Positions 27,115-52,502 of a DNA stretch of 64,000 nucleotides are shown here, in pieces. Each line of letters starts with the position of its first letter. Within the stretch, counting starts at the first letter, position 1. Both the position numbers and the translations under genes were made by a program. The notes beneath the pieces were generated by a model. The model had not been told where the DNA came from, did not search any database, and was given only the letters and a program-made list of their open reading frames with translations. The stretch comes from an uncultured Alphaproteobacteria bacterium (GTDB lineage Bacteria; Pseudomonadota; Alphaproteobacteria; Rs-D84), in contig CATOOF010000001.1 of NCBI GenBank assembly GCA_951801825.1, positions 380,132 to 444,131 of the forward strand, written 5' to 3'.

Positions 27115-27291
27115 TTTTGTCGCTCCACGATAAAACTATAGCATACCAATTTTGCCCGGCCATAGGGTTGTTATCCGACACAATGCTGGAAAACACTAAT
27201 CAGCATTAAATTGAATTTTTTATTATATAGCCCATGATTCGCGCAGACTTTATATTTGACTAACTATTATGAAATAGTTAAAATTTTTCTT

Positions 27292-27684
27292 ATGAAAAAG
27301 TTACTTATCTTTTTTTCACTATACATATTATTCACATCCCCAGTGCGTGCGGATCAATGTGAATGGGTATTTTGGGATGTGGCAGAAAAAGCGTACAAGT
27401 TATTGGAACATTCTAAGGATTATACCGAATTTTGTGCGCCATGCATGGACAAAGAGCCGATAACTCGGCAAATAAATACATTGGATATACAGCCGGTGCA
27501 TCAAAAAGATACTGATGAAAGACTGTATCAAATTTTGATAAACGGTAAATCAATTGATATCGCATACGTTTACATAAATGGTAAAAATTTGGGGATGCAG
27601 GCAAACTGCACCCCAATAAGTGGCGTTCCGGAATATATTGATGATTTTTTAACTGGTCGCTGGCAACCAGAAGAAACATTATAA
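27292..27684 (+). CDS. Secreted hypothetical protein (signal peptide, 4 Cys), AT-rich
   Basis: MKKLLIFFSLYILFTSPVRA signal peptide. Low GC; part of the tRNA-Thr-linked islet. Confidence 0.5.
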   Translation: MKKLLIFFSLYILFTSPVRADQCEWVFWDVAEKAYKLLEHSKDYTEFCAPCMDKEPITRQINTLDIQPVHQKDTDERLYQILINGKSIDIAYVYINGKNLGMQANCTPISGVPEYIDDFLTGRWQPEETL

Positions 27685-27697
27685 TATTTATATTGCA

Positions 27698-28222
27698 TCA
27701 ATATTTATTCGTGCGTTTTGTCCAGCCAATCTTGGCTGTTGGCCAGTTGGGGGTTTTCTTTAAATATTCAAAACGCTCAGCTTTTAAAGTTTCCATAAAA
27801 TCTGATACTTTATTTGCGGGGATAGAGTTTAAAGCATCTATCGTCTTGAGGCCAATTGCTCCGTCCACGGCAAGACTAGCATCACTAAAATCATTCAGCG
27901 CTCTTTGAACCACTTTTCCAGCTCCTCCCATAACATTCATATCGAATACAGCGTTTCGTACTCGATCATTTTCTATTTGTGGGATTTTTGTTTTGTCCCA
28001 ATACATATCCTTATAAATTTCTTTTACTTGCGGACGCTCTAAATCTATTACGTCTTTTGGTAAGTCTTTTTCAGGATGTTTTCTCGCATAATAATTCAGA
28101 GTACTTTGTTTTATTCCCATGTTTGTCGGTTCATCACTAACCTGATTTGTGCCGTCGGTATATTTTCCTTCTGGCTCTTTTAATTTATTATATGCTTCTT
28201 CAAATTTTTCATCTTTTATCAT
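27698..28222 (-). CDS. GH108-family lysozyme-like protein with a C-terminal PG_binding_3 domain
   Basis: EGKYTDGTNQVSDEPTNMGIKQSTL resembles the GH108 catalytic block. C-terminal VDGAIGLKTIDALNSIP...W motif. ATG 28222 has SD AAGGAAAC; the ORF-track start 28354 is an upstream extension. Confidence 0.55.
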   Translation of the reverse strand: MIKDEKFEEAYNKLKEPEGKYTDGTNQVSDEPTNMGIKQSTLNYYARKHPEKDLPKDVIDLERPQVKEIYKDMYWDKTKIPQIENDRVRNAVFDMNVMGGAGKVVQRALNDFSDASLAVDGAIGLKTIDALNSIPANKVSDFMETLKAERFEYLKKTPNWPTAKIGWTKRTNKY

Positions 28223-28425
28223 ATCTTTTGTTTCCTTCTTATCCTTCGATTTATATGGTTTGCTTTCGATTACAAGTGAAAAAGCCCCGCGGGTGCGGGG
28301 CAATAAAAAACGGCGATACCTATCGCCATTGTTCATAGGTATATTATACCACAATTTCTAATAAAAATCTATTAAATACCCCACATGCCAAAACAAAAAA
28401 ATCCGCGAAAATTCGCGGAAATCCT

Positions 28426-28500
28426 GGTGCCGGCTGTCGGACTTGAACCAACGACCCTCTGATTACAAATCAGATGCTCTACCAGCTGAGCTAAGCCGGC
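28426..28500 (-). tRNA. tRNA-Thr (anticodon TGT)
   Basis: Reverse complement GCCGGCTTAGCTCAGCTGGTAGAGC...anticodon loop TTTGTAA...GGTTCAAGTCC...CCA. Confidence 0.88.
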
Positions 28501-40967: not shown

Positions 40968-41057
40968 GGATGGTTGGCAGAGCGGTCGAATGCGGCGGTC
41001 TTGAAAACCGTTGAGGGTGCAAGCCCTCCGGGGGTTCGAATCCCTCACCATCCGCCA
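40968..41057 (+). tRNA. tRNA-Ser (anticodon TGA), long variable arm
   Basis: GGATGGTTGGCAGAGCGGTCGAATGC...CTTGAAAA...long extra arm...GGTTCGAATCCCTCACCATCCGCCA. Followed by a terminator hairpin at 41086-41115. Confidence 0.9.
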
Positions 41058-41184
41058 GGAATCAGTTATATTTTGAATATGTAAACATATCACGCGCAGG
41101 GCCCCGGAAAATTGGGGCGTTTTATTTATAACTCATCCATGGTATATCGTGAATTTTTAGAAAACGGCAAATAAAAAACACTTT

Positions 41185-41470
41185 CTATACATTGGCCTTT
41201 TTCGCCCTGGCAGTAGGTTTCGGGATTATATTTGATGCTTTGGTGCAATGGCAAAGATTTTCACCACACTGCACGGCATCAAATAATTCCTGGGGTATGA
41301 TTGGGGCATGTTCGCCACGGGCGGTGGTGCCGGTAACCTTGCACTCAACATAACCCAGATATATCTTACTGCGTAGCATTCTGTGCAATGCCATTTTCTT
41401 GATTGGATTCCCGCCAATAACGCGACCGCCGTGCGTCGCCCATTTCTTGGCATAAATCCCGATGGTGGGC
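41185..41470 (-). pseudogene. Remnant of a large serine recombinase (recombinase domain only; no resolvase catalytic domain, frame disrupted)
   Basis: Translation ...KKMALHRMLRSKIYLGYVECKVTGTTARGEHAPIIPQELFDAVQ matches the Recombinase-domain block (NPxYxG ... HEPIIsxELFexVQ) of large serine recombinases. Sits immediately next to the tRNA-Ser 3' end. Confidence 0.5.
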
Positions 41471-41653
41471 AGGTGTGGGAGAAAATAGAATGTGCAGAGT
41501 TAGAACCTGAGCCGGAACAATTGGATTTGTTTAAATAACACTTCCTTTCTCATAACGGTAGCTCCCGCTTTATTAGCTGTAACGCTTGTTAGGATTTTCC
41601 GGTGTAATAAATTCTATTGAAGTCCCGTAGTGTTTCTTTAGCAATATAACGCG

Positions 41654-42406
41654 TCAAATATAATGTATCGTGTATATAAGCTGTGTTGGCTGTTTGACGG
41701 ACAGTATTCCTGATAGGAGAGGTTGGCGTGAAACAGACTTCATAATATTTTTTAGTAATTCTTCTTTGCCAAAAAAATTTTTAAGGGGGAATATTTGCTC
41801 ATTATTTTTTATAGCTAAGATATCTAAGTGTATCTCTGTCTCATTATCATCGCATTTTTTTAAGGTCAGTATAGTTGCATTTGTATTCAGAGTTAGGTAA
41901 TAATCAGACTTTGTTCCTAAATCCTTATTGGCAGCACAGCTCATACATACTGCAAGTAAAGCAATGATAATATTTGAATTCAACTGCATTATATTATTAG
42001 AGTCTATGCTGATAATTTGTAATGACGGATCACTAGTGCCCCCTATAATGTTGAAATTGCTAGGAATTGATTTTCCATGATGGATGTGACATCGAAATAT
42101 ATGATACACAATTTCAGCCAAATCTGGCCCAAAGCATCCACCTACAACACGTCCTTTTTCATCCGTTATTTTTATACCTGGATAAAATTTCCAAGCCTCA
42201 CATTCTGGTAATCCCATAAAAGGTTCCATAATCCAGTAATAATTGCGTAGTAAATTTATATAGTCGTATCTTGAAATATAATCTTTGTTATACCAGTTTC
42301 TAGCAGTTCCTTCTATTGCCAATGTTGCAAAGTTAAATGCGGCTGTGAAATCTTGGGTGTTATAGGCATCAAGTGAGCGTTCTATGTTTCGAATTAATTC
42401 GGTCAT
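41654..42406 (-). CDS. Hypothetical protein (250 aa), AT-rich island cargo
   Basis: Clean ORF in a ~33% GC region. No recognisable motif. Confidence 0.45.
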   Translation of the reverse strand: MTELIRNIERSLDAYNTQDFTAAFNFATLAIEGTARNWYNKDYISRYDYINLLRNYYWIMEPFMGLPECEAWKFYPGIKITDEKGRVVGGCFGPDLAEIVYHIFRCHIHHGKSIPSNFNIIGGTSDPSLQIISIDSNNIMQLNSNIIIALLAVCMSCAANKDLGTKSDYYLTLNTNATILTLKKCDDNETEIHLDILAIKNNEQIFPLKNFFGKEELLKNIMKSVSRQPLLSGILSVKQPTQLIYTIHYI

Positions 42407-42529
42407 TTATTTATTCTTTTAGCTATGTATATAGGGATATTTTTGATAGGTTACAAGGTATATTCTTTTACAAGAAATCTACGACAAATGATATCGTAAG
42501 GATGTAATTTGTAAAAAGAACAGTAGGTG

Positions 42530-42955
42530 TTACAAATTTACAATCTCAATATCCGGGAACTGGGTGGCGATATATTCAGCGGCGAGTCTGCGGTGACATT
42601 GTAAAGCGCTCTTCTCGGTGCAGAGTAAGCATATTCGGTCAAGGTCGGGCGGGGCGAGCCCATCGGTCGGATGGCGTGTGGTCAGCAATTCATGGTACAT
42701 ACGCTCATAATCAGGCCAGGTAATGCGGCCGTCTTTGTAGCCGGCAAGGATTTCGGTGCTTGGGGCGAATTCTGTATGGTATTCATATCGGTCGCCCAGT
42801 GCGGCGGCCAAATTTGTGCCGCTATAAAACGGAACAAAACGACTGGTGCGCCACAGCCGAATATCCCAAACGCAACTTGCTTGGGTCGCGTTCAGGATAT
42901 CCATAAAATCGTCGGGCTTTTTGCCACTGAAGCCAATCGTAAAAATCTTTGCCAT
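42530..42955 (-). CDS. DUF488 (YeaO-like) family protein
   Basis: MAKIFTIGFSGKKPDDF...DIRLWRTSR N-terminal block typical of DUF488. Confidence 0.55.
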   Translation of the reverse strand: MAKIFTIGFSGKKPDDFMDILNATQASCVWDIRLWRTSRFVPFYSGTNLAAALGDRYEYHTEFAPSTEILAGYKDGRITWPDYERMYHELLTTRHPTDGLAPPDLDRICLLCTEKSALQCHRRLAAEYIATQFPDIEIVNL

Positions 42956-42956
42956 A

Positions 42957-43259
42957 TCAGTACAAAAATAGCCCGTTTAGCATCAAATAGCAATGATTTT
43001 CCTGCATCAGGAACTTTCGTGCCAATCCTATGCGGCAATGAGCGTACTGACTGTTGGAAATAGCATTGTTCAGACTTTTGATGTCTTTATCTTTTTCAAA
43101 TATATCACGTAAGTACTTGCAACTGACCTTTAATTCATAGGTTTGTTTGGAATAGTCCGTAATACGGGCACGCAATTTACCGTCTTCTGTAAAGAATTCA
43201 ATATTGTGTGCCGGAATCAATATGGCACCTAACGAAGGACATTTGGTTTTCTGTGGCAC
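42957..43259 (-). CDS. Hypothetical protein (100 aa), translationally coupled upstream partner of DUF488
   Basis: Stop codon 1 nt before the DUF488 start. AT-rich. Confidence 0.35.
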   Translation of the reverse strand: MPQKTKCPSLGAILIPAHNIEFFTEDGKLRARITDYSKQTYELKVSCKYLRDIFEKDKDIKSLNNAISNSQYAHCRIGLARKFLMQENHCYLMLNGLFLY

Positions 43260-43418
43260 ATAGGCATTTTCTTTGACGTGGTGATGGAATATGCCTTGTG
43301 TGTCTTTTTCCTCTTATGTTTGTGCAATGAATGCTTACAAACCGAGTCGAGTCAAGATATTAAGTATTGCTTGTAGTTATATAGTTGTTTGCTATGATTA
43401 GACAAATGGGAGAAATTA

Positions 43419-44408
43419 ATGCCAACAACTCGACATACTTTTGTTTGTCCAATATATAATATTGATGTAGATAATGATGTTTTGGGTGTTGATTATAATG
43501 GTTATATAATTATTTCTGCATCTGAATTTCACGAAAATTATGTGTCTCAATTATATTGTGATAATATGGGATTATTGGATGATATAAAATTACCGCAGCT
43601 TGGTTCAATAGTTGACCGGCCCACGGCTCGGTATATTATAATTTCTTATATAGATTTAGAAGATGGCTATAACCAAGATGTTATATCAGCTAATAACAAA
43701 AAGATAGATGAATTCTTTTGTGGCTTTTGCTTCGTAATAATGGCATTGAGATGGTTAGCCCCTGGAAATATACAGGTAAATAATGCTTATGTTTTATCAA
43801 GCAGAAGTGCAAGAAGAAGAGATTTTGGGATTTCTACACCATTGTATGGGCTAAGTAATATGTATACTGAAGGAACCACTCTTTTGTTCCTTAATAATTA
43901 TAGAATAACAGATGTTCTTTTAAATAGAGCGATTGAGCTCGGACAGAAAATAATAGATAATTATAGTGCCATCGAATATCCAGCGGTATATTTTAATCAG
44001 TATTACCAAACATATCATTTGCAAGATAAATTAATAAAGTTAATGACTTTGCTTGAAACTAGTTTAATGGGAGATAGTCCGATTGAAAAGCAATACGCAT
44101 TAATTTGTCGTGGATGTTATTTTTTGAATAAAAATATCGGGTTAACCTTAAAATGTGCATATTCAATCAGAAGTGAATATTTACATTCTGGTGATATTAA
44201 GCAGAAAACAGGTAAAAAAATTCAACAAATTGTGAATAAGCAAAATGAATGGGAAGCTTTATTTGTTTTTATAACGGAGTATCTCGAATTTATTTCTAGA
44301 GAAGTTTTAAATAAGTTATTTTTAGAAATTCTGGCTACAGGACATAAAATAGACCAAATAGATCGCGATTTAGATGAGCAAATTTATGCCAAATTAAGTA
44401 GCTCCTAG
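43419..44408 (+). CDS. Hypothetical protein with a possible HEPN-type Rx4H motif (Abi-like)
   Basis: C-terminal segment CAYSIRSEYLHSG fits the Rx4-6H HEPN signature. AT-rich. Assignment tentative. Confidence 0.35.
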   Translation: MPTTRHTFVCPIYNIDVDNDVLGVDYNGYIIISASEFHENYVSQLYCDNMGLLDDIKLPQLGSIVDRPTARYIIISYIDLEDGYNQDVISANNKKIDEFFCGFCFVIMALRWLAPGNIQVNNAYVLSSRSARRRDFGISTPLYGLSNMYTEGTTLLFLNNYRITDVLLNRAIELGQKIIDNYSAIEYPAVYFNQYYQTYHLQDKLIKLMTLLETSLMGDSPIEKQYALICRGCYFLNKNIGLTLKCAYSIRSEYLHSGDIKQKTGKKIQQIVNKQNEWEALFVFITEYLEFISREVLNKLFLEILATGHKIDQIDRDLDEQIYAKLSSS

Positions 44409-44582
44409 TTTTGGGTATTTAATCAGTTGATTTAAGTAATTCTTTATGCGAAACTGAAATTGAACTTATTGGGAATTGGGTTCGGGATTTGCCCAGAGAC
44501 GGCGGAACATTCGCTTGTTAACACCAACTCCCCGACCGCCATTATCCCATGGCGGTTAAATATTATCTATGGGAAGTAAATA

Positions 44583-45485
44583 ATGTCACATGAAATTCTG
44601 TTGAAAGATATTTTGGATGGGATAAAGGTAGATTCGTCTGCAAATCGTCGGCGCAAGCTGCGTTTCAATACTTCATGGATTGATCAGGATACAAAGATAT
44701 TCAGAGATTTCCGGTCAATGTATATGGATAATGACGAATGTTTTGTGCCATGGACTTTGTCTACTCGGTCGAATAAGCAAAAAAGACTTAGTGACATTGA
44801 CACGGTTTTTCAGTTTATTGAAATAGAACCGCATAAATGGTTGTTTGTAGGCGCATATGAAATAATTGACTTGAATTTGTCTGCGTTTGACAAAGTTATT
44901 GGTAAACCATTTGATTATGCAAATGCAAAAAGATTGGCCGAATTTGATAAGTTATCTGACAGATTAGTGGTGGAACACACTAATACACCAAAGAAATTTT
45001 TTTATACTGATCCTAATATAATTGACAATGTAAAGGTTTATACTATTTTGCCGCGACCGTATCGCGGTTCTGCAGAAGAGTTTCCAGGATATGAAAATGT
45101 ATGTAAAGATTATAAATCATTGTCGCATTGTATAAAAGACTCTGCGTGGCATGATGCCCTATGCAATGTATATGGTGTATATGTTTTGACTGATACAAAA
45201 ACTGGGAAATTATATATCGGGTCTGCAACGGGGGCGGATGGAATATATGGCCGGTGGCAAACTTATCTGAAAAGGGGATATGATGATTCTGATAAAGACT
45301 ATCCGAATAAAAAATTGAAAGAGTTGGTAAAAAAAGAAGGTATTAAATATATCCAGGATAATTTTCAATACAGCATATTAGAAATTTTCCCAAAGACAGA
45401 TATTGGATGCAATAAAGCGTTAGAACGCGAAAGTTATTGGAAAAATGTATTCAAAACGCGTATGTTTGGATATAATGATAACTAG
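44583..45485 (+). CDS. GIY-YIG nuclease domain protein with an uncharacterised ~190-aa N-terminal domain
   Basis: C-terminal GVYVLTDTKTGKLYIGSATGADGIYGRW...ALERESYW...FGYN reproduces the GIY, YIG, Arg, Glu and Asn positions. Confidence 0.65.
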   Translation: MSHEILLKDILDGIKVDSSANRRRKLRFNTSWIDQDTKIFRDFRSMYMDNDECFVPWTLSTRSNKQKRLSDIDTVFQFIEIEPHKWLFVGAYEIIDLNLSAFDKVIGKPFDYANAKRLAEFDKLSDRLVVEHTNTPKKFFYTDPNIIDNVKVYTILPRPYRGSAEEFPGYENVCKDYKSLSHCIKDSAWHDALCNVYGVYVLTDTKTGKLYIGSATGADGIYGRWQTYLKRGYDDSDKDYPNKKLKELVKKEGIKYIQDNFQYSILEIFPKTDIGCNKALERESYWKNVFKTRMFGYNDN

Positions 45486-45569
45486 GAATATCTAATGCTG
45501 TCAAAAGAGAAATGGGCTTTAGAATAGGCAGAATACAAAGACGTTAGTTGTAACTTTGGATATACCATA

Positions 45570-45956
45570 TTGCATAAGACGGGTAATACAGAATACTTGT
45601 CGGGCGCGTTTCGCAGTGCATTTGCAGAATGGACGACATTTAAAGATATAGAAAGCATGGCGTCTTTTATCGCGCTGTTATTATCTAGCCGGGTATTGAT
45701 TGAAGTTGATGTTTTATCAGCAGAGATATTTCCAGAACTGGAGCAATCTAAAATATTACAGTTTGCGCCGGGAATGTTAGATACATCAACCTTTCAATAT
45801 ATGGCTTTTAATGATGCAATGGCTGTGCCGGAAGTTCGTGATATAGAGGCAGGCGTTGGCCCATGTTTATCTATTTTTACCGCTTTGCCAGAATTGCGCG
45901 AAATCCAAGATTTGGATAAGCGAATATTTATATATGTTGATTTTAGACGCGTTTAG
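45570..45956 (+). CDS. Hypothetical protein (128 aa). GC higher than its neighbours.
   Basis: Clean ORF, convergent with the ParB-like gene. Confidence 0.4.
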   Translation: MHKTGNTEYLSGAFRSAFAEWTTFKDIESMASFIALLLSSRVLIEVDVLSAEIFPELEQSKILQFAPGMLDTSTFQYMAFNDAMAVPEVRDIEAGVGPCLSIFTALPELREIQDLDKRIFIYVDFRRV

Positions 45957-45979
45957 GATTGGTTGTGCCGGCCAAGCCG

Positions 45980-46471
45980 TCAGATGTCGCCCCGGTGGCA
46001 CTGCTGGTCTTCGTCAGTCAGCGCGGGAATGGCATCCGCTTTCGGATCACTTGCTCCATCACCGTCCAGAATTAGGTCAATCTCGGCGGTCTCAAAACCG
46101 GAGATTTCCAGATTGAAATCCAGGTCCAGGTTGCTCAATTCACTGAATTCCAGATTCAACAATTCGATACTCCATTTGCCGAGTTCCGTAAGTTTGTTGT
46201 CCGCGATGCGGTACGCGCGTTTTTGTGCATCCGTCAGATGCGACAGAATAATTGCCGGCACTTCGATCATGCCGGCATCCTTGGCCGCCGCCACGCGCCC
46301 ATGCCCGGTGATGATTTCCAGATTCTCGTCCAGCAAGACCGGATTGATAAACCCGAACTCGCGGATGGATTCGCGTATTTTTGCGACTTGGACTTTGGTA
46401 TGCAGCTTCGGGTTGTTTTTGTACGCCCGAATGTCAGTTATTTTTATGTTTTGGATTTGTAAGTTGGTCAT
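45980..46471 (-). CDS. ParB-like nuclease domain protein (ParB/Srx N-terminal domain only)
   Basis: IREFGFINPVLLDENLEIITGHGRVAAAKDAG contains the ParB GxxR box. ATG 46471 has a GGAG SD; ORF-track 46582 is an upstream extension. ~50% GC inside an AT-rich island. Confidence 0.6.
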   Translation of the reverse strand: MTNLQIQNIKITDIRAYKNNPKLHTKVQVAKIRESIREFGFINPVLLDENLEIITGHGRVAAAKDAGMIEVPAIILSHLTDAQKRAYRIADNKLTELGKWSIELLNLEFSELSNLDLDFNLEISGFETAEIDLILDGDGASDPKADAIPALTDEDQQCHRGDI

Positions 46472-46687
46472 TAGACACTCCGTATAAGTTTTGTTAATCA
46501 TCACTATAAATTTTTTATAGGGGGGTATATATATGGAAAAGTGAAAGTTTACTTGAGTGTTCGCGCCACGAAACCTATACACTTTCCCTCTTATAAGGCG
46601 ATCTGAAAGTTTATGTTTTGATATATGGCTAAAAATAATGTGTTATACTTGAAAAAATGGCTGGTGTGATATATATAGAAATATACT

Positions 46688-48265
46688 ATGAGAATTAATA
46701 AGTCGGCGGGTTTAAACGAGTCAGAGCATCGTCTTGTAAAACTAGGCGAGAAGGTTTTTATGGGATTATGGAGTTATCCTAATCCCAAAATAAAAACCTC
46801 ATCAGGAACCCCGGAATTATGTGATTTGTTAGTTGTTTGTGGTAATAATGTACTAGTTTTCTCAGATAAAGATATCAAATTCAATGAGGATAAAGACTTA
46901 TTAGTGGCTTGGCGCAGATGGGAGCGGAAAGCTATATTAAAATCGATAAATCAGTTAAGACATGCCGAAAATATTATAAAAGATCATCCAGAAAAAATAT
47001 TATTGAATGATACAGATCCTTTTCCTTTGTCATTTCCTGCAAAGAGGGATTTAAAAATACGTTTAATATGTGTGGCAAATGGGGTAGCGGAAGCGTGTAA
47101 AAGATATTTTGGTAAAGGCTGTACAGGAAGTTTAAAATTTTCTAACTTAAACGGTTATACTCAGGTGTCAGATAAGGACTTGTCTAAGTTACCTGTTAAG
47201 GAAAGAGAAGAGTATAAAGAGAGTACGATATTCACTATAGCTGATTATGATTCATTAAAAACCTTTGTACATGTTTTTGATGATTATTCTTTCCCGTTTG
47301 TTTTACAGGAATTAGATACATTGACGGATTTCGTTAAATATTTGGAAGAAAAGGAGCGTTTTATAAGATCTGGGGTTGCGGTATGTTATACTGGCGAAGA
47401 GGATTTATTATACAATTATTTAAAAGAGTTTGATGAAGAACGCAATTGTCATACATTTGTAAATCCAAAAGAAACTAATGCAAATGTATTTATGTTTATG
47501 GAAGAGGATTGGAATTCATTTAAACAGTCCCAACAATATATTGCTCGTATAAAAGCTAACCAAAAAAGCTATTTCTGGGATCAGCTTGTTCAACATAATG
47601 CCCAATGTACATTGGCCGGTATTACTAAAATTTTTGCTACTGCGTCAGCAGACTGTGATATTGCTTTTCGGTATATGGCGCTAGAGGATCGATTGTCGCG
47701 CAGAGCATTTTCCGATAGAATGATAGCTGCAATCAGCAATTTCCCCGATAATTATACGCCAGACAATCACTATATGAGTGCATTTTTCTCTTTTGTGAAT
47801 GATGGATTATTGTACATATTTTTACAAATTCCCAAGGAAAACAACAGTTCTCATGGTGATTACTTAAAAGCTAGACGTGATAAAATGCAAATTTACGCCA
47901 ACTGTGCCAAAGCTAGATGTGAAATAGAGGGTAAGTTTGTAGACAAGGTTATATGTATTGCAACTGAGCCGATGAGAATTGTGAAAAATGTTGATATAGA
48001 CATAATGCTAATGGATATTAAAGAATGGAATACAGAACTACAGAACCATTGGGAATCGGCACGTCGAAACTTAAACATATTTAGAAAATCATTTAAAGAT
48101 CTGCAGCATGCAAAAGAAAAAGAATGGCCTGAGTCTCCGATTTTTGTGCAAAAACGAACTAAAAAGATAGGTCAAAATGATAAATGTCCATGTGGTAGTG
48201 GATTAAAATACAAGAAGTGCTGCGGAAGTGTTTTGAAACCCAAAAAACAAATACCTTACATATAA
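46688..48265 (+). CDS. NERD-like nuclease-related domain protein with a C-terminal SEC-C metal-binding motif
   Basis: N-terminus GEKVFMGLWS...ELCDLLVVCGNNVLVFSDKDIKF matches the NERD pattern (E...ExDhvvv...vfvxExK). The terminal CPCGSGLKYKKCCG is a SEC-C motif. Confidence 0.5.
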   Translation: MRINKSAGLNESEHRLVKLGEKVFMGLWSYPNPKIKTSSGTPELCDLLVVCGNNVLVFSDKDIKFNEDKDLLVAWRRWERKAILKSINQLRHAENIIKDHPEKILLNDTDPFPLSFPAKRDLKIRLICVANGVAEACKRYFGKGCTGSLKFSNLNGYTQVSDKDLSKLPVKEREEYKESTIFTIADYDSLKTFVHVFDDYSFPFVLQELDTLTDFVKYLEEKERFIRSGVAVCYTGEEDLLYNYLKEFDEERNCHTFVNPKETNANVFMFMEEDWNSFKQSQQYIARIKANQKSYFWDQLVQHNAQCTLAGITKIFATASADCDIAFRYMALEDRLSRRAFSDRMIAAISNFPDNYTPDNHYMSAFFSFVNDGLLYIFLQIPKENNSSHGDYLKARRDKMQIYANCAKARCEIEGKFVDKVICIATEPMRIVKNVDIDIMLMDIKEWNTELQNHWESARRNLNIFRKSFKDLQHAKEKEWPESPIFVQKRTKKIGQNDKCPCGSGLKYKKCCGSVLKPKKQIPYI

Positions 48266-48277
48266 ATAGGATGTAAG

Positions 48278-48454
48278 ATGCCGGTTTTTAATAGAAATGG
48301 AGAAGTGATAGGTGTAATTACAGAAACGCCAGATCCAGAAGGTGATTATGATAAATTTGGTTACGGGGTAGCAATTCCTATGGAATATATAGAACAGCTA
48401 GAAAATGAATATGATAGAAAAATAACTTTTATGGATGATATTAATTGTGTGTAA
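48278..48454 (+). pseudogene. Trypsin-fold protease C-terminal fragment, in frame with and separated by a single TAA from the preceding gene
   Basis: IGCKMPVFNRNGEVIGVIT...GYGVAIP parallels the GNSGGPLVNLNGEVIGINT...GIGFAIP block of HtrA/S1 proteases with Ser replaced by Cys. There is no upstream His/Asp region, so it is likely a remnant. Confidence 0.35.
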
Positions 48455-48487
48455 TTAAAATTATCTTTATAACTAATCGTTATTATA

Positions 48488-49873
48488 TTAATAAAATCCA
48501 AATTTTAATTTCCTATTCTCTATTTCTGATTGTAGCATATCAAAATTGAAATCAGAACGATTTATATTTTTATAAAATTTTAGTAAATGATAATGAAAAG
48601 AATTGTGAAATGTCTTTTTTATCATACTATCTAACAAAGTAATATAGTAATCTTCTCTGTTAAGCTCTTTCATTATTTTATATACATTAGATAGTCTAAA
48701 ATCCGGAGAATCTGCAAGAATAGTTTCATCTAGTATAGATGTAATAGTTGGTTCTAATAGTTCATTTTCAAGAAAGTTTATTCCTTTTTTCACTAATAGT
48801 GTAATTATTCGTTTTATCACTCTATCAGATCTAAATGCATATTTTTTCATTTTGTAGTCAAAGAACTCTCTAACAGCAGAATTAAAATTTTCTTTTGTGG
48901 TATCGTCGGATAAGCAACTAATAATATCAAAAGCTTGGTAAATTCTATATTCTGATGCTTTCATAATATGAACTTTACCAACATTTATATTAAGTCCAAT
49001 CTTATATAAAATTTTGGATGCTTCAAAGATATGTTTTTCTGCGGTATACTTATCGTTGCTAAATATTGCCATATCATCAGCAAAACGTATATAAGAAGAA
49101 CCGGAAGCTTGTGTTAAGTTAAATATGCGTTTGTCAAATTCTCTCAGATAAAAATTTGCAAGCTGTCTGGAACAATCGCCGACTTCGTCTTGCGGTATGC
49201 CGGTATGTCGACTAAAATATCCGTCAAAAGGTTTGTTCCAGTAATGTAAAAAGTACATTAGTAAATCAAGTTCATTGCTAAGAGTATTGGGTATTTTATG
49301 GCGCAGGCGTTTTTCTAATAAATCAACTTTTATATTGTCATAGAAGTTAGCTATATCAAATATTGCTACATAAAAATCCTCTCCGAATTTTGATTGATAA
49401 TCTAAAAATACGGAATATGCTTTTCTGGTATATTCATTCCATTCGTTCAACCATGCTCGAATATCTATTGCTGCAGCTGGAAAGTATTGGATTGTATCCA
49501 ACATAAGAAGGTCTTCAAAATTTTCTATTTCTTTAATTGGATTGCTAAATCTCCAGCCGCCAAATGTTCCTTGTGTCCTATCTTTTATGTCGCATATGTA
49601 ATCTTGGAGTTTGTTTAAACAGTAAAAATATGCACAATAGTCTGTAAATTCAAACGTTGGTACTATTCTGGCGACATTACCACCTTTGTTAAATATTATA
49701 TAGTCTCTTGGAATTGTCGGTTGATATGTATTGTTTGAGATGTCGTTATACAAATTAGATAAACCGGTTTGTATATCAATAAGAGGAAACTCTATTAGGG
49801 ATTGTTTTTTTACATGTTTTGCAAAAGGTAACATTGAAGCGATAAACTCAGACTTAGTTTCATGAATTTGCAT
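48488..49873 (-). CDS. Reverse transcriptase of the Abi/retron/DRT-like (non-intron, non-LTR) type, 461 aa
   Basis: RT motifs 1-2 (IFNKGGNVARIVP), A (VAIFDIANFYDNI), B' (GIPQDEVGDCSRQLANFYL), C (YIRFADDMAIFS), D (KIGLNINVGKVHI). ~140-aa alpha-helical C-terminal extension. No maturase or endonuclease domains. Confidence 0.75.
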   Translation of the reverse strand: MQIHETKSEFIASMLPFAKHVKKQSLIEFPLIDIQTGLSNLYNDISNNTYQPTIPRDYIIFNKGGNVARIVPTFEFTDYCAYFYCLNKLQDYICDIKDRTQGTFGGWRFSNPIKEIENFEDLLMLDTIQYFPAAAIDIRAWLNEWNEYTRKAYSVFLDYQSKFGEDFYVAIFDIANFYDNIKVDLLEKRLRHKIPNTLSNELDLLMYFLHYWNKPFDGYFSRHTGIPQDEVGDCSRQLANFYLREFDKRIFNLTQASGSSYIRFADDMAIFSNDKYTAEKHIFEASKILYKIGLNINVGKVHIMKASEYRIYQAFDIISCLSDDTTKENFNSAVREFFDYKMKKYAFRSDRVIKRIITLLVKKGINFLENELLEPTITSILDETILADSPDFRLSNVYKIMKELNREDYYITLLDSMIKKTFHNSFHYHLLKFYKNINRSDFNFDMLQSEIENRKLKFGFY

Positions 49874-50199
49874 AAATTTCCTCTTTTCTGGAATTATAAT
49901 AGGAAAGTGTTTGGTGGTCCAGAATATAGTTATACCTTGAGAGGTATATCAAAAACTTATGAAGCTGATATGTGTTGCCATAATTATGCCGGGTGTTGCG
50001 CCAATAATCATCAATAGTACCTAAATTTTCCCAGATAATACAAAATATTGCTAATTTGTGAGCCGAGATTAGCGATAAGTTTTTATGTTCGTATTCGAAA
50101 AAGTGAATAAAATCGCGTAGTTTTTCGGTTTGTATTCAAAATAATTTGATGGTTTTGCAATGATTTTTAGGTTGTCGCCAAATAATGGCAATCTATACC

Positions 50200-50390
50200 T
50201 TGGCGGGGGTGGGGCGGGGATGTTCCCTGATGTGGGCGGGTGAAATCCCTGTTCCTAATATAAAAATTCCCTGTTATTTTTGTGGGAAATTTTGTGAAAG
50301 TCCCGGAAATCGGGTGCAACGGGTGAAAACGGGGGCGCCGAGATGCCGAAAGTTCCCTGTTAATCCCTGTATTTTGTTGTATGGCGTTTG
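50200..50390 (+). repeat. Locally GC-rich array of five TCCCTGT(T) direct repeats (starts 50224, 50246, 50268, 50354, 50364; spacings 22, 22, 86, 10 nt) interleaved with three GGGTGAAA motifs
   Basis: Read directly from the sequence. The overlapping ORFs 50185..50439 (+) and 50167..50532 (-) are judged non-coding. Confidence 0.6.
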
Positions 50391-50450
50391 CCGTAGAATA
50401 TTGGTGCGCCGTCAGGAATATATTATTGAAATTGCTTAATCTTTTTACAA

Positions 50451-50485
50451 AACATCCGATGTCTGTCGGATGTTCTTTTATAGGT
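50451..50485. terminator. Bidirectional intrinsic terminator (AACATCCGA/TCGGATGTT 9-bp stem, 6-nt loop, T/A runs either side)
   Basis: Perfect inverted repeat followed by CTTTTATA on the plus strand and preceded by TTTTTACAAA. Confidence 0.65.
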
Positions 50486-50557
50486 TTTAAGGGCCAAATT
50501 CGACTTTTGTGGGGGTAAAAATAAACAGGCAACAGTTGTTATAAAAATGAAAACATT

Positions 50558-51067
50558 GTGTTTACGCCCAACACCCCAGCTGAAAAAGCAACATTTGAAA
50601 AGCCGGTTAATACAATGCCTGGTTACTATGCGGTATTTGATGACAAGCAATTTACATTGTATGTGGATGATAAACCGGTAATATCATGGGATGCTGTATC
50701 TGGTCGTTCCGGTTACCAAAGCCCAGAATGTCAAGACCAAAAATCCACAGGGCCAATCCCAGAAGGGACGTATGTTGCAAGACAGGAAAAACTACAGTTT
50801 ATGTCTGCTACAGATTGGCTTATTGGCTGGACGACTAAAGTTACTGATAGGGGTGTTTGGCCCGGGTCTTCAATGTCTTGGGGAAGCTCGCGTGTCTGGT
50901 TAGAACCATCAAAAGAAACAAATACGTTTGGTCGAGGTGGTTTCAGTATTCATGGTGGCGAGGAGCCCGGTTCTGCTGGTTGCATTGATCTAACAAGTGA
51001 AATGCCAGGGTTTGCAGATTGGTTCAAAAAGAATGGAAAAGATTTAATTATTAAAGTAGAGTATTAA
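50558..51067 (+). CDS. DUF2778/Tlde1-like L,D-transpeptidase-fold protein (candidate peptidoglycan-targeting toxin)
   Basis: GRGGFSIHGGEEPGSAGCIDL has the His...Ser-x-Gly-Cys catalytic arrangement of YkuD/Tlde1 domains. Start uncertain (GTG 50558 or ATG 50615). Confidence 0.6.
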   Translation: MFTPNTPAEKATFEKPVNTMPGYYAVFDDKQFTLYVDDKPVISWDAVSGRSGYQSPECQDQKSTGPIPEGTYVARQEKLQFMSATDWLIGWTTKVTDRGVWPGSSMSWGSSRVWLEPSKETNTFGRGGFSIHGGEEPGSAGCIDLTSEMPGFADWFKKNGKDLIIKVEY

Positions 51068-51082
51068 AAACAAAGGCATAAA

Positions 51083-51409
51083 ATGAAAAAAATATTAAAC
51101 ATAACAAGTTATGTCGCGACAATATGTTTGTTTTGTGCCCTGTATATTTTTTTATTTGATTTGGTTTGTATCGGCAAAATTTCAAAATTTAATCATATTT
51201 GGGCAAATGCTTGTCAGTTTGATATTGAAGGCGCATATCTAACCTGTATGACAAATTATGATGTTTCGTGCATTGTGTTGTTGTTGCTCATATTATCTTT
51301 TATGTTATTGCGGCTAATAAGAGTATATAACAAACGTGTCCTGCTCGTTCCGATTTGTGGTTTTTTATTGTTTGTGTTGTCTGTTATAACATGTTGGGGG
51401 CTTGTCTAA
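51083..51409 (+). CDS. Small multi-TM membrane protein, candidate cognate immunity protein
   Basis: Three hydrophobic helices, 15 nt downstream of the Tlde1-like gene. Confidence 0.45.
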   Translation: MKKILNITSYVATICLFCALYIFLFDLVCIGKISKFNHIWANACQFDIEGAYLTCMTNYDVSCIVLLLLILSFMLLRLIRVYNKRVLLVPICGFLLFVLSVITCWGLV

Positions 51410-51515
51410 AACGTTCCTTCTTTGCTCGTTAGATATGGTACGGTTAACTGTTTCTGGATTCGTATATGCCAGGTCTAGGTGGCGGTAAAACTGGCGTGGT
51501 AGTGATTGACGAATG

Positions 51516-52502
51516 TTATGAGTTCTTTATCGCATATTCGGCATATTTTGGACATTCAAAAAAATACTTGGCAAATTCAGCGTCAATCTCACTAAGCCGT
51601 CGTATTGTACCGTCGCTGTCGATAAAAGGTGGATCAACACGCCGCATCTTTTGCGACAGGATAATACCATCTTGGTCGTCTATGGTTGTGCGCCATGCGT
51701 CCGGTGCTTTATACATTGGTGAAAAATCAACCCCGGCCAAATGCATTTTGCGTATAACCTGCATATCGTTTAGCTCAAGGAATTCTTCGCGTGTTAAAAT
51801 TTTCCGCTCTATGGCATTGCGACAAATCCGGGCCAGCATTTCTTCGTAAAACGTAGCGCCATAGCTTGAATAAATCTCTTCGTCGGTCTGATTAAACACG
51901 CGTGCGAACATTTTTGCTGATTTTGCATCCTGTAATACAAATCCATCTGGTGTTGCGACGATTGCCCGGCTTAGTGCTACTTCGTCACAGTCCAACAGCT
52001 TGCCGTGATGGTGCATGTGTGGAATTGCACGCAGACAATAATCAAGTCTGTCCGCGCACAGGTCCGGCAAATCACGTTCTTTTAATATAAATTTTGAGTC
52101 GTCTAATATTTCATCAAGACAAAAGCCGGCACGGGTAATAATTTCCGCCAGCTCAGAGTTTTTTACAAATTTATCGTGAATGTCATCCTGGTATTCCTGT
52201 GTTCTGGATGAGGTTTCGCCGCCGAACAAGCGGTCCGATAAATGCGAGAACGCCGTATGTGACACGTCGTGTATCAGGCCTGCAATTTGTTCCGCCATAG
52301 ATGCGCCATGAATTCGCAACAACATAAACACGCCAATTGAATGATGATATCGGGATACGGGAATGGAGTAAAAAGGCCGACATGGTACCCATGGCCCCAT
52401 GTTTATTCCCTGCAGGCGCTGAAACGTTGGCGCGGCGATAATTTCTTGAAAAACCGGCTCTTCTACATTCAGTACGCCGTAAATTCTATCGCAACAAATC
52501 AT
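51516..52502 (-). CDS. HD-domain metal-dependent phosphohydrolase
   Basis: H...HD...D motif set (YHHSIGV, HDVSHTAFSH, DRLDY). Confidence 0.7.
   Translation of the reverse strand: MICCDRIYGVLNVEEPVFQEIIAAPTFQRLQGINMGPWVPCRPFYSIPVSRYHHSIGVFMLLRIHGASMAEQIAGLIHDVSHTAFSHLSDRLFGGETSSRTQEYQDDIHDKFVKNSELAEIITRAGFCLDEILDDSKFILKERDLPDLCADRLDYCLRAIPHMHHHGKLLDCDEVALSRAIVATPDGFVLQDAKSAKMFARVFNQTDEEIYSSYGATFYEEMLARICRNAIERKILTREEFLELNDMQVIRKMHLAGVDFSPMYKAPDAWRTTIDDQDGIILSQKMRRVDPPFIDSDGTIRRLSEIDAEFAKYFFECPKYAEYAIKNS

Follow-up and report, generated by a model that had tools for sequence, protein, structure and literature searches.

What is a gene pair resembling a toxin and its immunity protein doing at the edge of a low-GC, defence-type island in an uncultured gut alphaproteobacterium of the Rs-D84 lineage? 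The pair occupies positions 50558-51409 of the stretch that we analysed (64,000 nucleotides, nt, of contig CATOOF010000001.1; hereafter the window), and the initial annotation had read it as a Tlde1-like toxin followed by a membrane immunity protein. We located both open reading frames (ORFs) and the 15-nt gap between them as claimed, and we consider the locus—with a probability of about 0.68—to be an orphan cassette of a polymorphic peptidoglycan-targeting toxin system, made up of a truncated Tlde1-type toxin and its cognate membrane immunity gene. The argument turns on the following features, with lengths in amino acids (aa):

50558..51067, + strand: Tlde1-domain ORF, a 5'-truncated mosaic toxin module with a GTG start and 169 aa, or 150 aa if read from ATG 50615
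50939..50992, + strand: active-site motif GFSIHGGEEPGSAGCIDL, toxin residues 128-145
51083..51409, + strand: 108-aa membrane protein with an ATG start and three predicted helices, the predicted cognate immunity protein

The Tlde1-type protein and its membrane partner

The toxin frame is open from 50525 (the preceding stop codon lying at 50522-50524) to the TAA at 51065-51067, and it offers GTG 50558 and ATG 50615 as candidate starts. Its product scored above the Pfam cut-offs for both Tlde1_dom (PF10908/DUF2778; 40.3 bits, cut-off 30.1) and YkuD (29.7 bits, cut-off 23.4), and PF10908 was present in nearly all of the 330 homologues found. The sole sequence matches in the PDB were to Salmonella Tlde1a (7uma/7uo8). 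An AlphaFold2 model, computed with 28 homologues in the alignment (pLDDT 88.4, pTM 0.84), led to the same protein: in a Foldseek search of the PDB the top three matches were Tlde1a structures (E-values of 6e-7 to 3e-6, TM-score ~0.6), with YkuD and then mycobacterial Ldt enzymes ranked after them. Residues His132 (codon 50951-50953), Ser139 and Cys142 (codon 50981-50983) align to H121, S128 and C131 of Tlde1a—the roles of these active-site residues being taken from PMC9638812—and are invariant across the 28 sequences. Such agreement in motif and fold is far beyond chance, and the ORF encodes a genuine Tlde1/YkuD-fold protein bearing the catalytic His and Cys that the initial annotation had recognized. 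One position differs: H129 of Tlde1a, the second His of the (S/T)HGC motif, is Ala140 in the toxin, where the GSAGCID sequence is conserved clade-wide, and this replacement points to altered substrate handling and not to exclusion from the Pfam family. On direct reading of the sequence, no signal peptide was seen in the toxin, the N-terminus of which is hydrophilic.

The partner gene is preceded by AAAGG on direct reading. Hydropathy analysis of its 108-aa product indicated three hydrophobic helices, and the AlphaFold2 model (pLDDT 81.9) placed helices at residues 2-28, 34-41 and 51-104. Searches of Pfam, NCBIfam and PADLOC assigned this protein to no family—NCBIfam and PADLOC likewise gave no match for the toxin—and DUF2195, the domain of Tldi1, was not matched either, the protein having three transmembrane (TM) helices instead of a cleavable Sec signal peptide. 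We found 27 clusters of homologues, all of ~108 aa and with 56-93% identity to the window protein, in which D26, I33, K35, F36, H38, I39, W40, C44, C55, M56 and D60 are invariant. Conservation is concentrated just past TM1 and in a loop (residues ~31-60, with an ISKFNHIW-type motif), and TM2 is variable. The positive-inside rule, applied to the N-terminal MKK and to the RVYNKR sequence between TM2 and TM3, predicts that this loop faces the periplasm. The C-terminus, read directly, is a hydrophobic segment (..VITCWGLV) without a charged tail; such a tail is a usual feature of holins. In comparisons with related loci, which carry the labels L011, L014, L017, L019 and so on, the ratio of non-synonymous to synonymous divergence (dN/dS) of the partner was 0.30-0.40 against L011/L017 and 0.11 against L014.

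Truncation and mosaicism of the window copy

The form of the gene becomes clear by comparison with its relatives. Full-length Tlde1 relatives measure ~330-460 aa and carry an N-terminal MuF-like and/or peptidoglycan-binding module. The MuF core, W.W.S..C..C...HPNC[RK]C, occurs in 32 of 58 related ORFs of at least 250 aa, and a PG_binding_1-like segment in nine of the 58. Only part of the Phage_Mu_F model (PF04233, cut-off 29.6 bits) is covered, the L014 protein scoring 31.9 bits over model positions 57-111 only and a lysozyme fusion in L017 staying under the cut-off at 26.2 bits. Sister proteins join the same ~190-aa N-terminal module to a Phage_lysozyme or GH108 domain, and their genes are paired with small lipoprotein-like or signal-peptide proteins. 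A pattern-limited scan of IMG/VR viral contigs returned no match to the module.

Set against these relatives, the window copy displays four further features:

50545..50565, + strand: truncation junction, where homology to full-length MuF-Tlde1 genes begins (codon ~207-210 of 375 in L019)
50615..50617, + strand: ATG arising from a Lys-to-Met change (linker VNTKPG in relatives, VNTMPG here), a candidate new start
50873..50998, + strand: mosaic crossover zone, in which the L017-like 3' part begins (50873) and the L019-like 5' part ends (50998)
50451..50474, + strand: terminator-like hairpin ~85 nt before the GTG, with a 10-bp stem and a T-rich tail behind it (consensus scan only)

The closest full-length relative of the 5' part is the 375-aa MuF-Tlde1 protein gene of L019/L020, with 89.6% nt identity over 50565-50998 as judged by blastn and protein alignment. 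The ATT GTG at 50555-50560 aligns with an internal ..T-I-V.. of L019; the start codon flagged as ambiguous in the initial annotation is thus indeed so, GTG 50558 being an internal Val codon of the relatives and ATG 50615 a derived codon. Among 46 relatives that share the linker, the residue in question is K in 37, N in six, E in two and M in one only—the window allele. Upstream of ~50545 the nucleotide comparison revealed no similarity to L019, and no HPNC[RK]C ORF was found in any frame of the 64-kb window, which holds no full-length toxin gene. Because homology to L019 starts at codon ~210 with nothing matching before it, the window copy lacks some 55-60% of the ancestral gene and with it the entire MuF-like module. 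The remaining portion is itself composite: the segment 50873-51415, which spans the toxin tail and the partner gene, best matches L017, L011, L055 and others (81-85% nt identity in the closest, 84% in L017, and ~73% in L014 and L060). As the best match switches from the L019 to the L017 type, the toxin gene is a recombinant of two alleles, with the crossover in the WLEPSKETN...GSAGCID core—a zone holding the conserved WLEPSKETNT(F/Y)GR motif that is the start point of orphan fragments elsewhere. The proposal of a toxin/immunity pair stands as regards the pair and falls as regards an intact toxin: the window copy appears to be a 5'-truncated mosaic orphan, devoid of the MuF-like/peptidoglycan-binding module that its relatives use. 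The hairpin upstream, the lack of any match to a plus-strand sigma-70-type promoter in a consensus scan of 49800-51600 and the absence, on direct reading, of a Shine-Dalgarno-like sequence ahead of the GTG hint weakly at little or no expression of the toxin part.

How the 5' end was lost is suggested by the surroundings of the gene, framed by two features:

40968..41057, + strand: tRNA-Ser(TGA), the conserved left anchor of the locus
41058..50545, no strand assigned: low-GC defence-type island DNA of ~9.5 kb (28-41% GC against roughly 48% elsewhere), between the tRNA-Ser and the truncated toxin gene

Four related genomes (L017, L019, L046 and L060) have this tRNA-Ser at 89-100% identity, and in each of them a full-length toxin gene with its partner comes within ~150-300 nt after it. 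Synteny with the window otherwise extends in L017 from LGT through an HD-domain gene to glyQS, and the island is absent from L017. Since relatives have the full-length toxin directly after the tRNA-Ser, where the island now sits, the pair belongs to the resident chromosomal flank and is not island cargo. The placement of the pair at the end of the island as part of it, as originally proposed, is therefore not borne out: the pair marks a conserved post-tRNA-Ser chromosomal locus, with island DNA lying in between, and the 5' end of the toxin gene was lost at the junction with the island.

The pair as a probable toxin/immunity unit

Support for a functional link between the two genes comes from a collection of 106 loci, 80 of them taken from a set of species-representative genomes, 14 viral and the rest obtained via exact protein look-up. 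In every locus retrieved through three homologues of the 108-aa protein (P0125, P0142 and P0134), a Tlde1-domain ORF lay immediately upstream. The 106 loci contained 125 Tlde1-motif ORFs, defined by the motif GS[AQ]GC[IV]D, and 115 of them had a downstream partner, defined as an ORF of at least 60 aa starting -40 to +150 nt from the stop codon. The partner had at least two TM segments in 105 of the 125 cases, a pattern at odds with housekeeping enzymes that carry a signal peptide and lack a conserved partner gene; it is consistent with the immunity role assigned to the downstream gene on account of its position. Tlde1 ORFs outside the pattern were contig ends, decayed fragments and distant relatives (Cupriavidus, Archangium and rhizobial proviruses). 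The common partner architecture comprises 105-133 aa, arranged as TM1, a ~30-residue loop (usually with two Cys), TM2, a short basic turn and TM3. The partners are nonetheless not one superfamily, as HHalign related the 108-aa family to a 113-aa partner family (99.4%) and not to a 117-aa "G.E.MGW" family (0.4%).

The identity of the partner follows that of the toxin tail. Tail types were defined by the two residues following HGG together with the ~25 residues following GSAGCID, and across 90 non-redundant pairs they agreed with the partner family at an adjusted Rand index (ARI) of 0.64 and an adjusted mutual information of 0.73; the highest ARI among 5,000 permutations was 0.11. Given that linked genes are co-inherited, this association counts as support and not as proof. 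Moreover, in many loci tail-only fragments of 33-90 aa, each with a membrane partner of its own, lie downstream of a longer Tlde1 gene, and nearly all of them begin at one conserved motif, (L)EPSKETNTYGR. Conserved adjacency, co-variation and these orphan arrays together support the view that the pair is a toxin/immunity unit. The tail-partner association, the tail fragments and the module shared among variable domains mark a polymorphic toxin family, in which all payloads are predicted to degrade peptidoglycan and the immunity proteins to reside in the cell envelope.

Two further observations concern this family. The array at 8001-10495 of L008 (the same locus as L032) opens with a 265-aa Tlde1 protein and a 117-aa partner, continues with a 66-aa orphan tail and a 118-aa partner, and ends in a GH108 protein, the first ~60 residues of which (PG_binding_1-like) are near-identical to the N-terminus of the 265-aa protein. 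A second, unrelated lineage of three-helix partners, with the loop motif C..W G.E.M G W.W, is found in L008, L009, L025-L029, L073, L078-L082, L088-L089 and others; G.E.M-type loop motifs, judged by eye, recur in partners from distant taxa. This lineage has no Pfam family and may constitute an undescribed immunity family for Tlde1-type toxins.

By homology with Tlde1a, the toxin would act in the periplasm on peptidoglycan stem peptides—by L,D-carboxypeptidase activity and/or D-amino-acid exchange through Cys142/His132—and the DUF2778 literature describes Tlde1 as toxic in the periplasm only. The 108-aa protein, presumably seated in the inner membrane, would expose on the periplasmic side its ~30-residue loop, in which two Cys are invariant, and there inhibit the toxin by binding it. 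Export or delivery of the full-length relatives presumably depends on the N-terminal MuF-like and/or peptidoglycan-binding module. As this module is lost, the window copy is most likely not deliverable and possibly not expressed; the cell would keep immunity against neighbours with a matching toxin tail, along with a toxin sequence reservoir for recombination.

The genomic context offers few clues to a delivery route. In agreement with the initial annotation, no type VI secretion system (T6SS), Rhs or VgrG genes occur in the island or in the DNA on either side, nor does a PAAR gene. The surroundings of the 58 full-length loci are diverse and mostly housekeeping, with 439 neighbour ORFs falling into 290 clusters, the commonest of which—a PG_binding_1-GH108 protein—occurs at 14 loci. 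A scan of 148 non-redundant neighbour ORFs from these loci, with the 25 most frequent families listed, gave three integrases and one match to a terminase large subunit in the lists shown; the terminase-matching ORF was not recovered on a re-scan of 10 candidates. No portal or capsid family was present in the PHROG list for the 148 neighbours, and no T6SS family among their 25 most frequent Pfam families. As far as context shows, this toxin family is not a T6SS cargo family. Loading of the full-length toxins into capsids via the MuF-like module would be a guess from homology, which the genomic context does not support. The hosts belong to Rs-D84/"Candidatus Enterousia" and relatives, with genomes of ~0.7-1.6 Mb. 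On the viral side, the IMG/VR proviruses L100-L106 and L110 encode Tlde1 proteins of 205-236 aa with a C-terminal extension of ~60-90 aa and no obvious membrane partner, an architecture that differs from that of the gut-alphaproteobacterial family.

Several observations weigh against an orphan and in favour of its main rival, namely that the locus encodes a functional standalone Tlde1 effector with its immunity protein—a 150-aa domain translated from ATG 50615 and exported by some route (as T6SS cargo, in vesicles or by lysis) against competitors. The truncated ORF is intact and keeps the whole Tlde1 domain with its catalytic residues; its divergence is mostly synonymous (dN/dS of 0.17 between its 5' part and L019, and of 0.05 between its tail and L017). 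The Met codon unique to this allele stands exactly ahead of the domain and could be the new start codon of a standalone protein. Nine other loci hold near-complete Tlde1 ORFs (five distinct sequences) that stand alone, with no MuF ORF upstream, so that such domains recur in other metagenome-assembled genomes, and Salmonella Tlde1a, the characterised cargo effector, likewise consists of a single domain of ~170 aa. The identical allele was found on at least 20 contigs from different samples and is therefore stably maintained. In addition, little weight can be placed on the promoter and terminator scans, linkage and common descent inflate the co-variation statistic, and the tail and the 'cap' region each give an ARI of 0.36-0.59 with the partner family, varying by clustering threshold. 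We nevertheless regard a standalone effector as unlikely. The low-dN/dS divergence may predate the truncation; no T6SS, VgrG, PAAR or Rhs genes accompany the pair in the window or figure among the most frequent neighbour families of the 58 loci; the genomes of the host clade are strongly reduced; the closest relatives all have the N-terminal module that the window copy lost; and the gene lacks a signal peptide and a clear ribosome-binding site or promoter, with a terminator-like hairpin upstream.

A phage origin, with the Tlde1 protein as an endolysin or virion cell-wall enzyme and the partner as a holin or as a superinfection-exclusion factor directed at the incoming enzyme, could account for the Phage_Mu_F match in full-length relatives, for the sister GH108/Phage_lysozyme families (typical of phage endolysins), for the small multi-TM partners, for the integrase and Imm_superinfect gene near one locus and for the Tlde1-domain genes on some viral contigs and in one Burkholderia phage. 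It is improbable all the same, in that the lysozyme/GH108 partners are lipoprotein-like or signal-peptide proteins and not holins, tail-only fragments with matched partners would make no sense in a lysis cassette, housekeeping genes surround the loci (the lists shown for 148 neighbours contain a single terminase match), the pattern-limited IMG/VR scan yielded no N-terminal module and the 108-aa protein lacks a holin-type charged C-terminal tail. A holin/endolysin cassette, a candidate raised by the GH108/lysozyme neighbours, was accordingly rejected on partner types, orphan arrays and context, and the superinfection-exclusion variant was kept as an unlikely candidate. Least plausible is a housekeeping L,D-transpeptidase/carboxypeptidase that remodels the cell's own peptidoglycan next to an unrelated membrane protein: the YkuD match and Ldt-like fold would fit such an enzyme, yet the protein has no signal peptide or membrane anchor and scores higher against Tlde1_dom than against YkuD, its partner is conserved and co-varying, the family shows orphan arrays and mosaic alleles, and the low-GC locus varies in genome position. 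An orphan toxin cassette with its immunity gene thus remains our preferred explanation.

Genomic setting, known systems and significance

The island that separates the pair from its tRNA-Ser anchor contains the following features:

41654-42406, - strand: Rv1289-like gene
42530-42955, - strand: DUF488 gene
43419-44408: 329-aa ORF of unknown function
44583-45485: UzuA homologue with a GIY-YIG domain (PADLOC 1.5e-48)
~45980-46471, - strand: ParB_N-like gene
46688-48454: 525-aa SEC-C-motif protein, then a 58-aa ORF
48488-49873, - strand: UG13b-class reverse transcriptase (PADLOC 6e-112)
50192..50419, no strand assigned: conserved non-coding element of ~230 nt at the island's right end, with five TCCCTG boxes and weaker similarity from 50077

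The island modules occur in another order in L022, and in L019, L020 and L060 the DUF488 gene directly follows the toxin/immunity pair. We found no integrase in the island and, upon a search, no att-like flanking direct repeats; an Rfam scan of 40-56 kb yielded tRNA only. The TCCCTG-box element has copies of 82-83% identity in L022 and L077, a partial one in L030 and no Rfam match. In L022 it lies ~600 nt from a homologue of window positions 41054-41216, the left end of the island. A mobile element joined end to end, as a circle or in tandem, would give this order, which suggests that the conserved element represents iteron or arm-type sites of such an end. A role of the conserved stretch 50077-50419 as the RNA partner of the UG13b reverse transcriptase was rejected, as the copies in L022, L077 and L030 have no reverse transcriptase gene nearby. 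On the other side of the pair, a 328-aa HD-domain protein (51516-52502, - strand; Pfam score at threshold) is encoded convergently with the partner gene; its conservation in the syntenic L017 assigns it to the chromosomal flank and not to the cassette.

Elsewhere in the window we observed a second cell-wall-enzyme pair, consisting of a GH108 plus PG_binding_3-like ORF (27698-28354, - strand; Pfam 2.9e-12) and a convergent 142-aa signal-peptide protein (27256-27684, + strand), adjoining a tRNA-Thr (28425-28500, - strand). The GH108 ORF has its likely true start near Met45 and no MuF or PG_binding_1 N-terminus, and homologous genes in L008 and L009 are likewise paired with a small opposite-strand ORF; the pair at 27256-28354 is probably another N-terminally short toxin/immunity cassette. 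Upstream of this GH108 gene (28279-28388, - strand) lies a conserved non-coding element of ~100-110 nt (74-80% identity), which is also found immediately upstream of MuF-type toxin genes in L017 (4830-4940 and 7716-7826), L022, L046, L055 and L060 and is absent 5' of the truncated Tlde1 gene; its role may be that of a common leader, a promoter or a recombination site.

Among known systems, the orphan CdiA-CT/CdiI and Rhs-CT/RhsI modules—C-terminal toxin pieces without a delivery region, next to a cognate immunity gene—provide a close parallel to the state of the window copy, as breakpoints at a conserved motif, mosaic alleles and a retained partner gene occur here too. Here the exchange can be confined to the ~50 residues that end the catalytic domain, which places the polymorphism inside the domain, and the window orphan, unlike most short orphan fragments in the other loci, is not downstream of a full-length gene within 64 kb.

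In fold, the closest counterpart is Tlde1a/Tldi1a of Salmonella Typhimurium SPI-6 (Tae5/Tai5 in a preprint), the best PDB match by both sequence and structure. The two pairs share the aligned catalytic His, Ser and Cys, a domain of ~150-170 aa, the lack of a signal peptide and an adjacent small, envelope-located partner. They differ in that identity is only ~23-24%, His129 is replaced by Ala in the window clade, T6SS context is lacking here and the Tldi1a gene lies upstream of its toxin, whereas the window partner is a downstream three-helix membrane protein without DUF2195. Furthermore, the relatives of the window toxin are fused to MuF-like/peptidoglycan-binding modules, an architecture not reported for DUF2778: the original DUF2778 study (preprint) describes mostly single-domain proteins and some Rhs fusions, with TM-containing immunity proteins for one family.

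The full-length relatives also recall MuF polymorphic toxins, with which they share the W.W.S..C..C...HPNCRC core, variable C-terminal toxin domains and a small ORF after the toxin gene. Most of the MuF toxins described so far are nucleases, ADP-ribosyltransferases, RelA-like enzymes or peptidases. According to Jamet et al. (2017; PMC5576092), the toxin-bearing muf genes belong chiefly to Firmicutes prophages, and 87% of muf genes on bacterial chromosomes adjoin portal or terminase genes. The relatives described here are, in contrast, all predicted to degrade peptidoglycan, reside in alphaproteobacterial hosts among housekeeping neighbours and match only the C-terminal half of the Pfam model; the window gene has no MuF part at all. 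Zhang et al. (2012; PMC3482391) list Tox-LD-peptidase with T2SS, T6SS and TcdB/TcaC trafficking and not with MuF, and the MuF-Tlde1 architecture is not mentioned in the MuF/polymorphic-toxin papers (including these two). Indeed, we found no description in the literature searched of a family that combines a MuF-like module with Tlde1, lysozyme or GH108 domains, matched membrane or lipoprotein partners and intra-domain tail swapping in genome-reduced gut Alphaproteobacteria.

A broader scenario, which we put forward as tentative and rather doubtful, is that the MuF-like module marks an undescribed delivery route for peptidoglycan-degrading toxins in Rs-D84/Enterousia, either phage-independent or relying on a capsid encoded elsewhere. 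The toxins would then diversify through exchange of only the ~50 C-terminal residues of the catalytic domain, each time along with the membrane immunity gene that matches them, and the allele-specific new ATG might have turned the window copy back into an active standalone effector.

For annotation, the gene is best labelled a truncated orphan toxin module with an immunity gene—not a T6SS effector, nor defence-island cargo. More generally, the Tlde1-type toxin family is widespread in small-genome gut Alphaproteobacteria. Tlde1 has been known as an enterobacterial T6SS cargo, and MuF toxins as payloads of the nuclease type in Firmicutes prophages; an uncultured gut lineage with very small genomes here brings both together, along with sister toxins bearing lysozyme/GH108 domains and with membrane-embedded predicted immunity proteins outside any described family. 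Should the family be confirmed, cell-wall-targeting competition systems would be retained and actively reshuffled even in genomes of ~1 Mb, and the naturally matched toxin tails and immunity proteins of these loci would allow a study of how a catalytic domain encodes specificity within itself.

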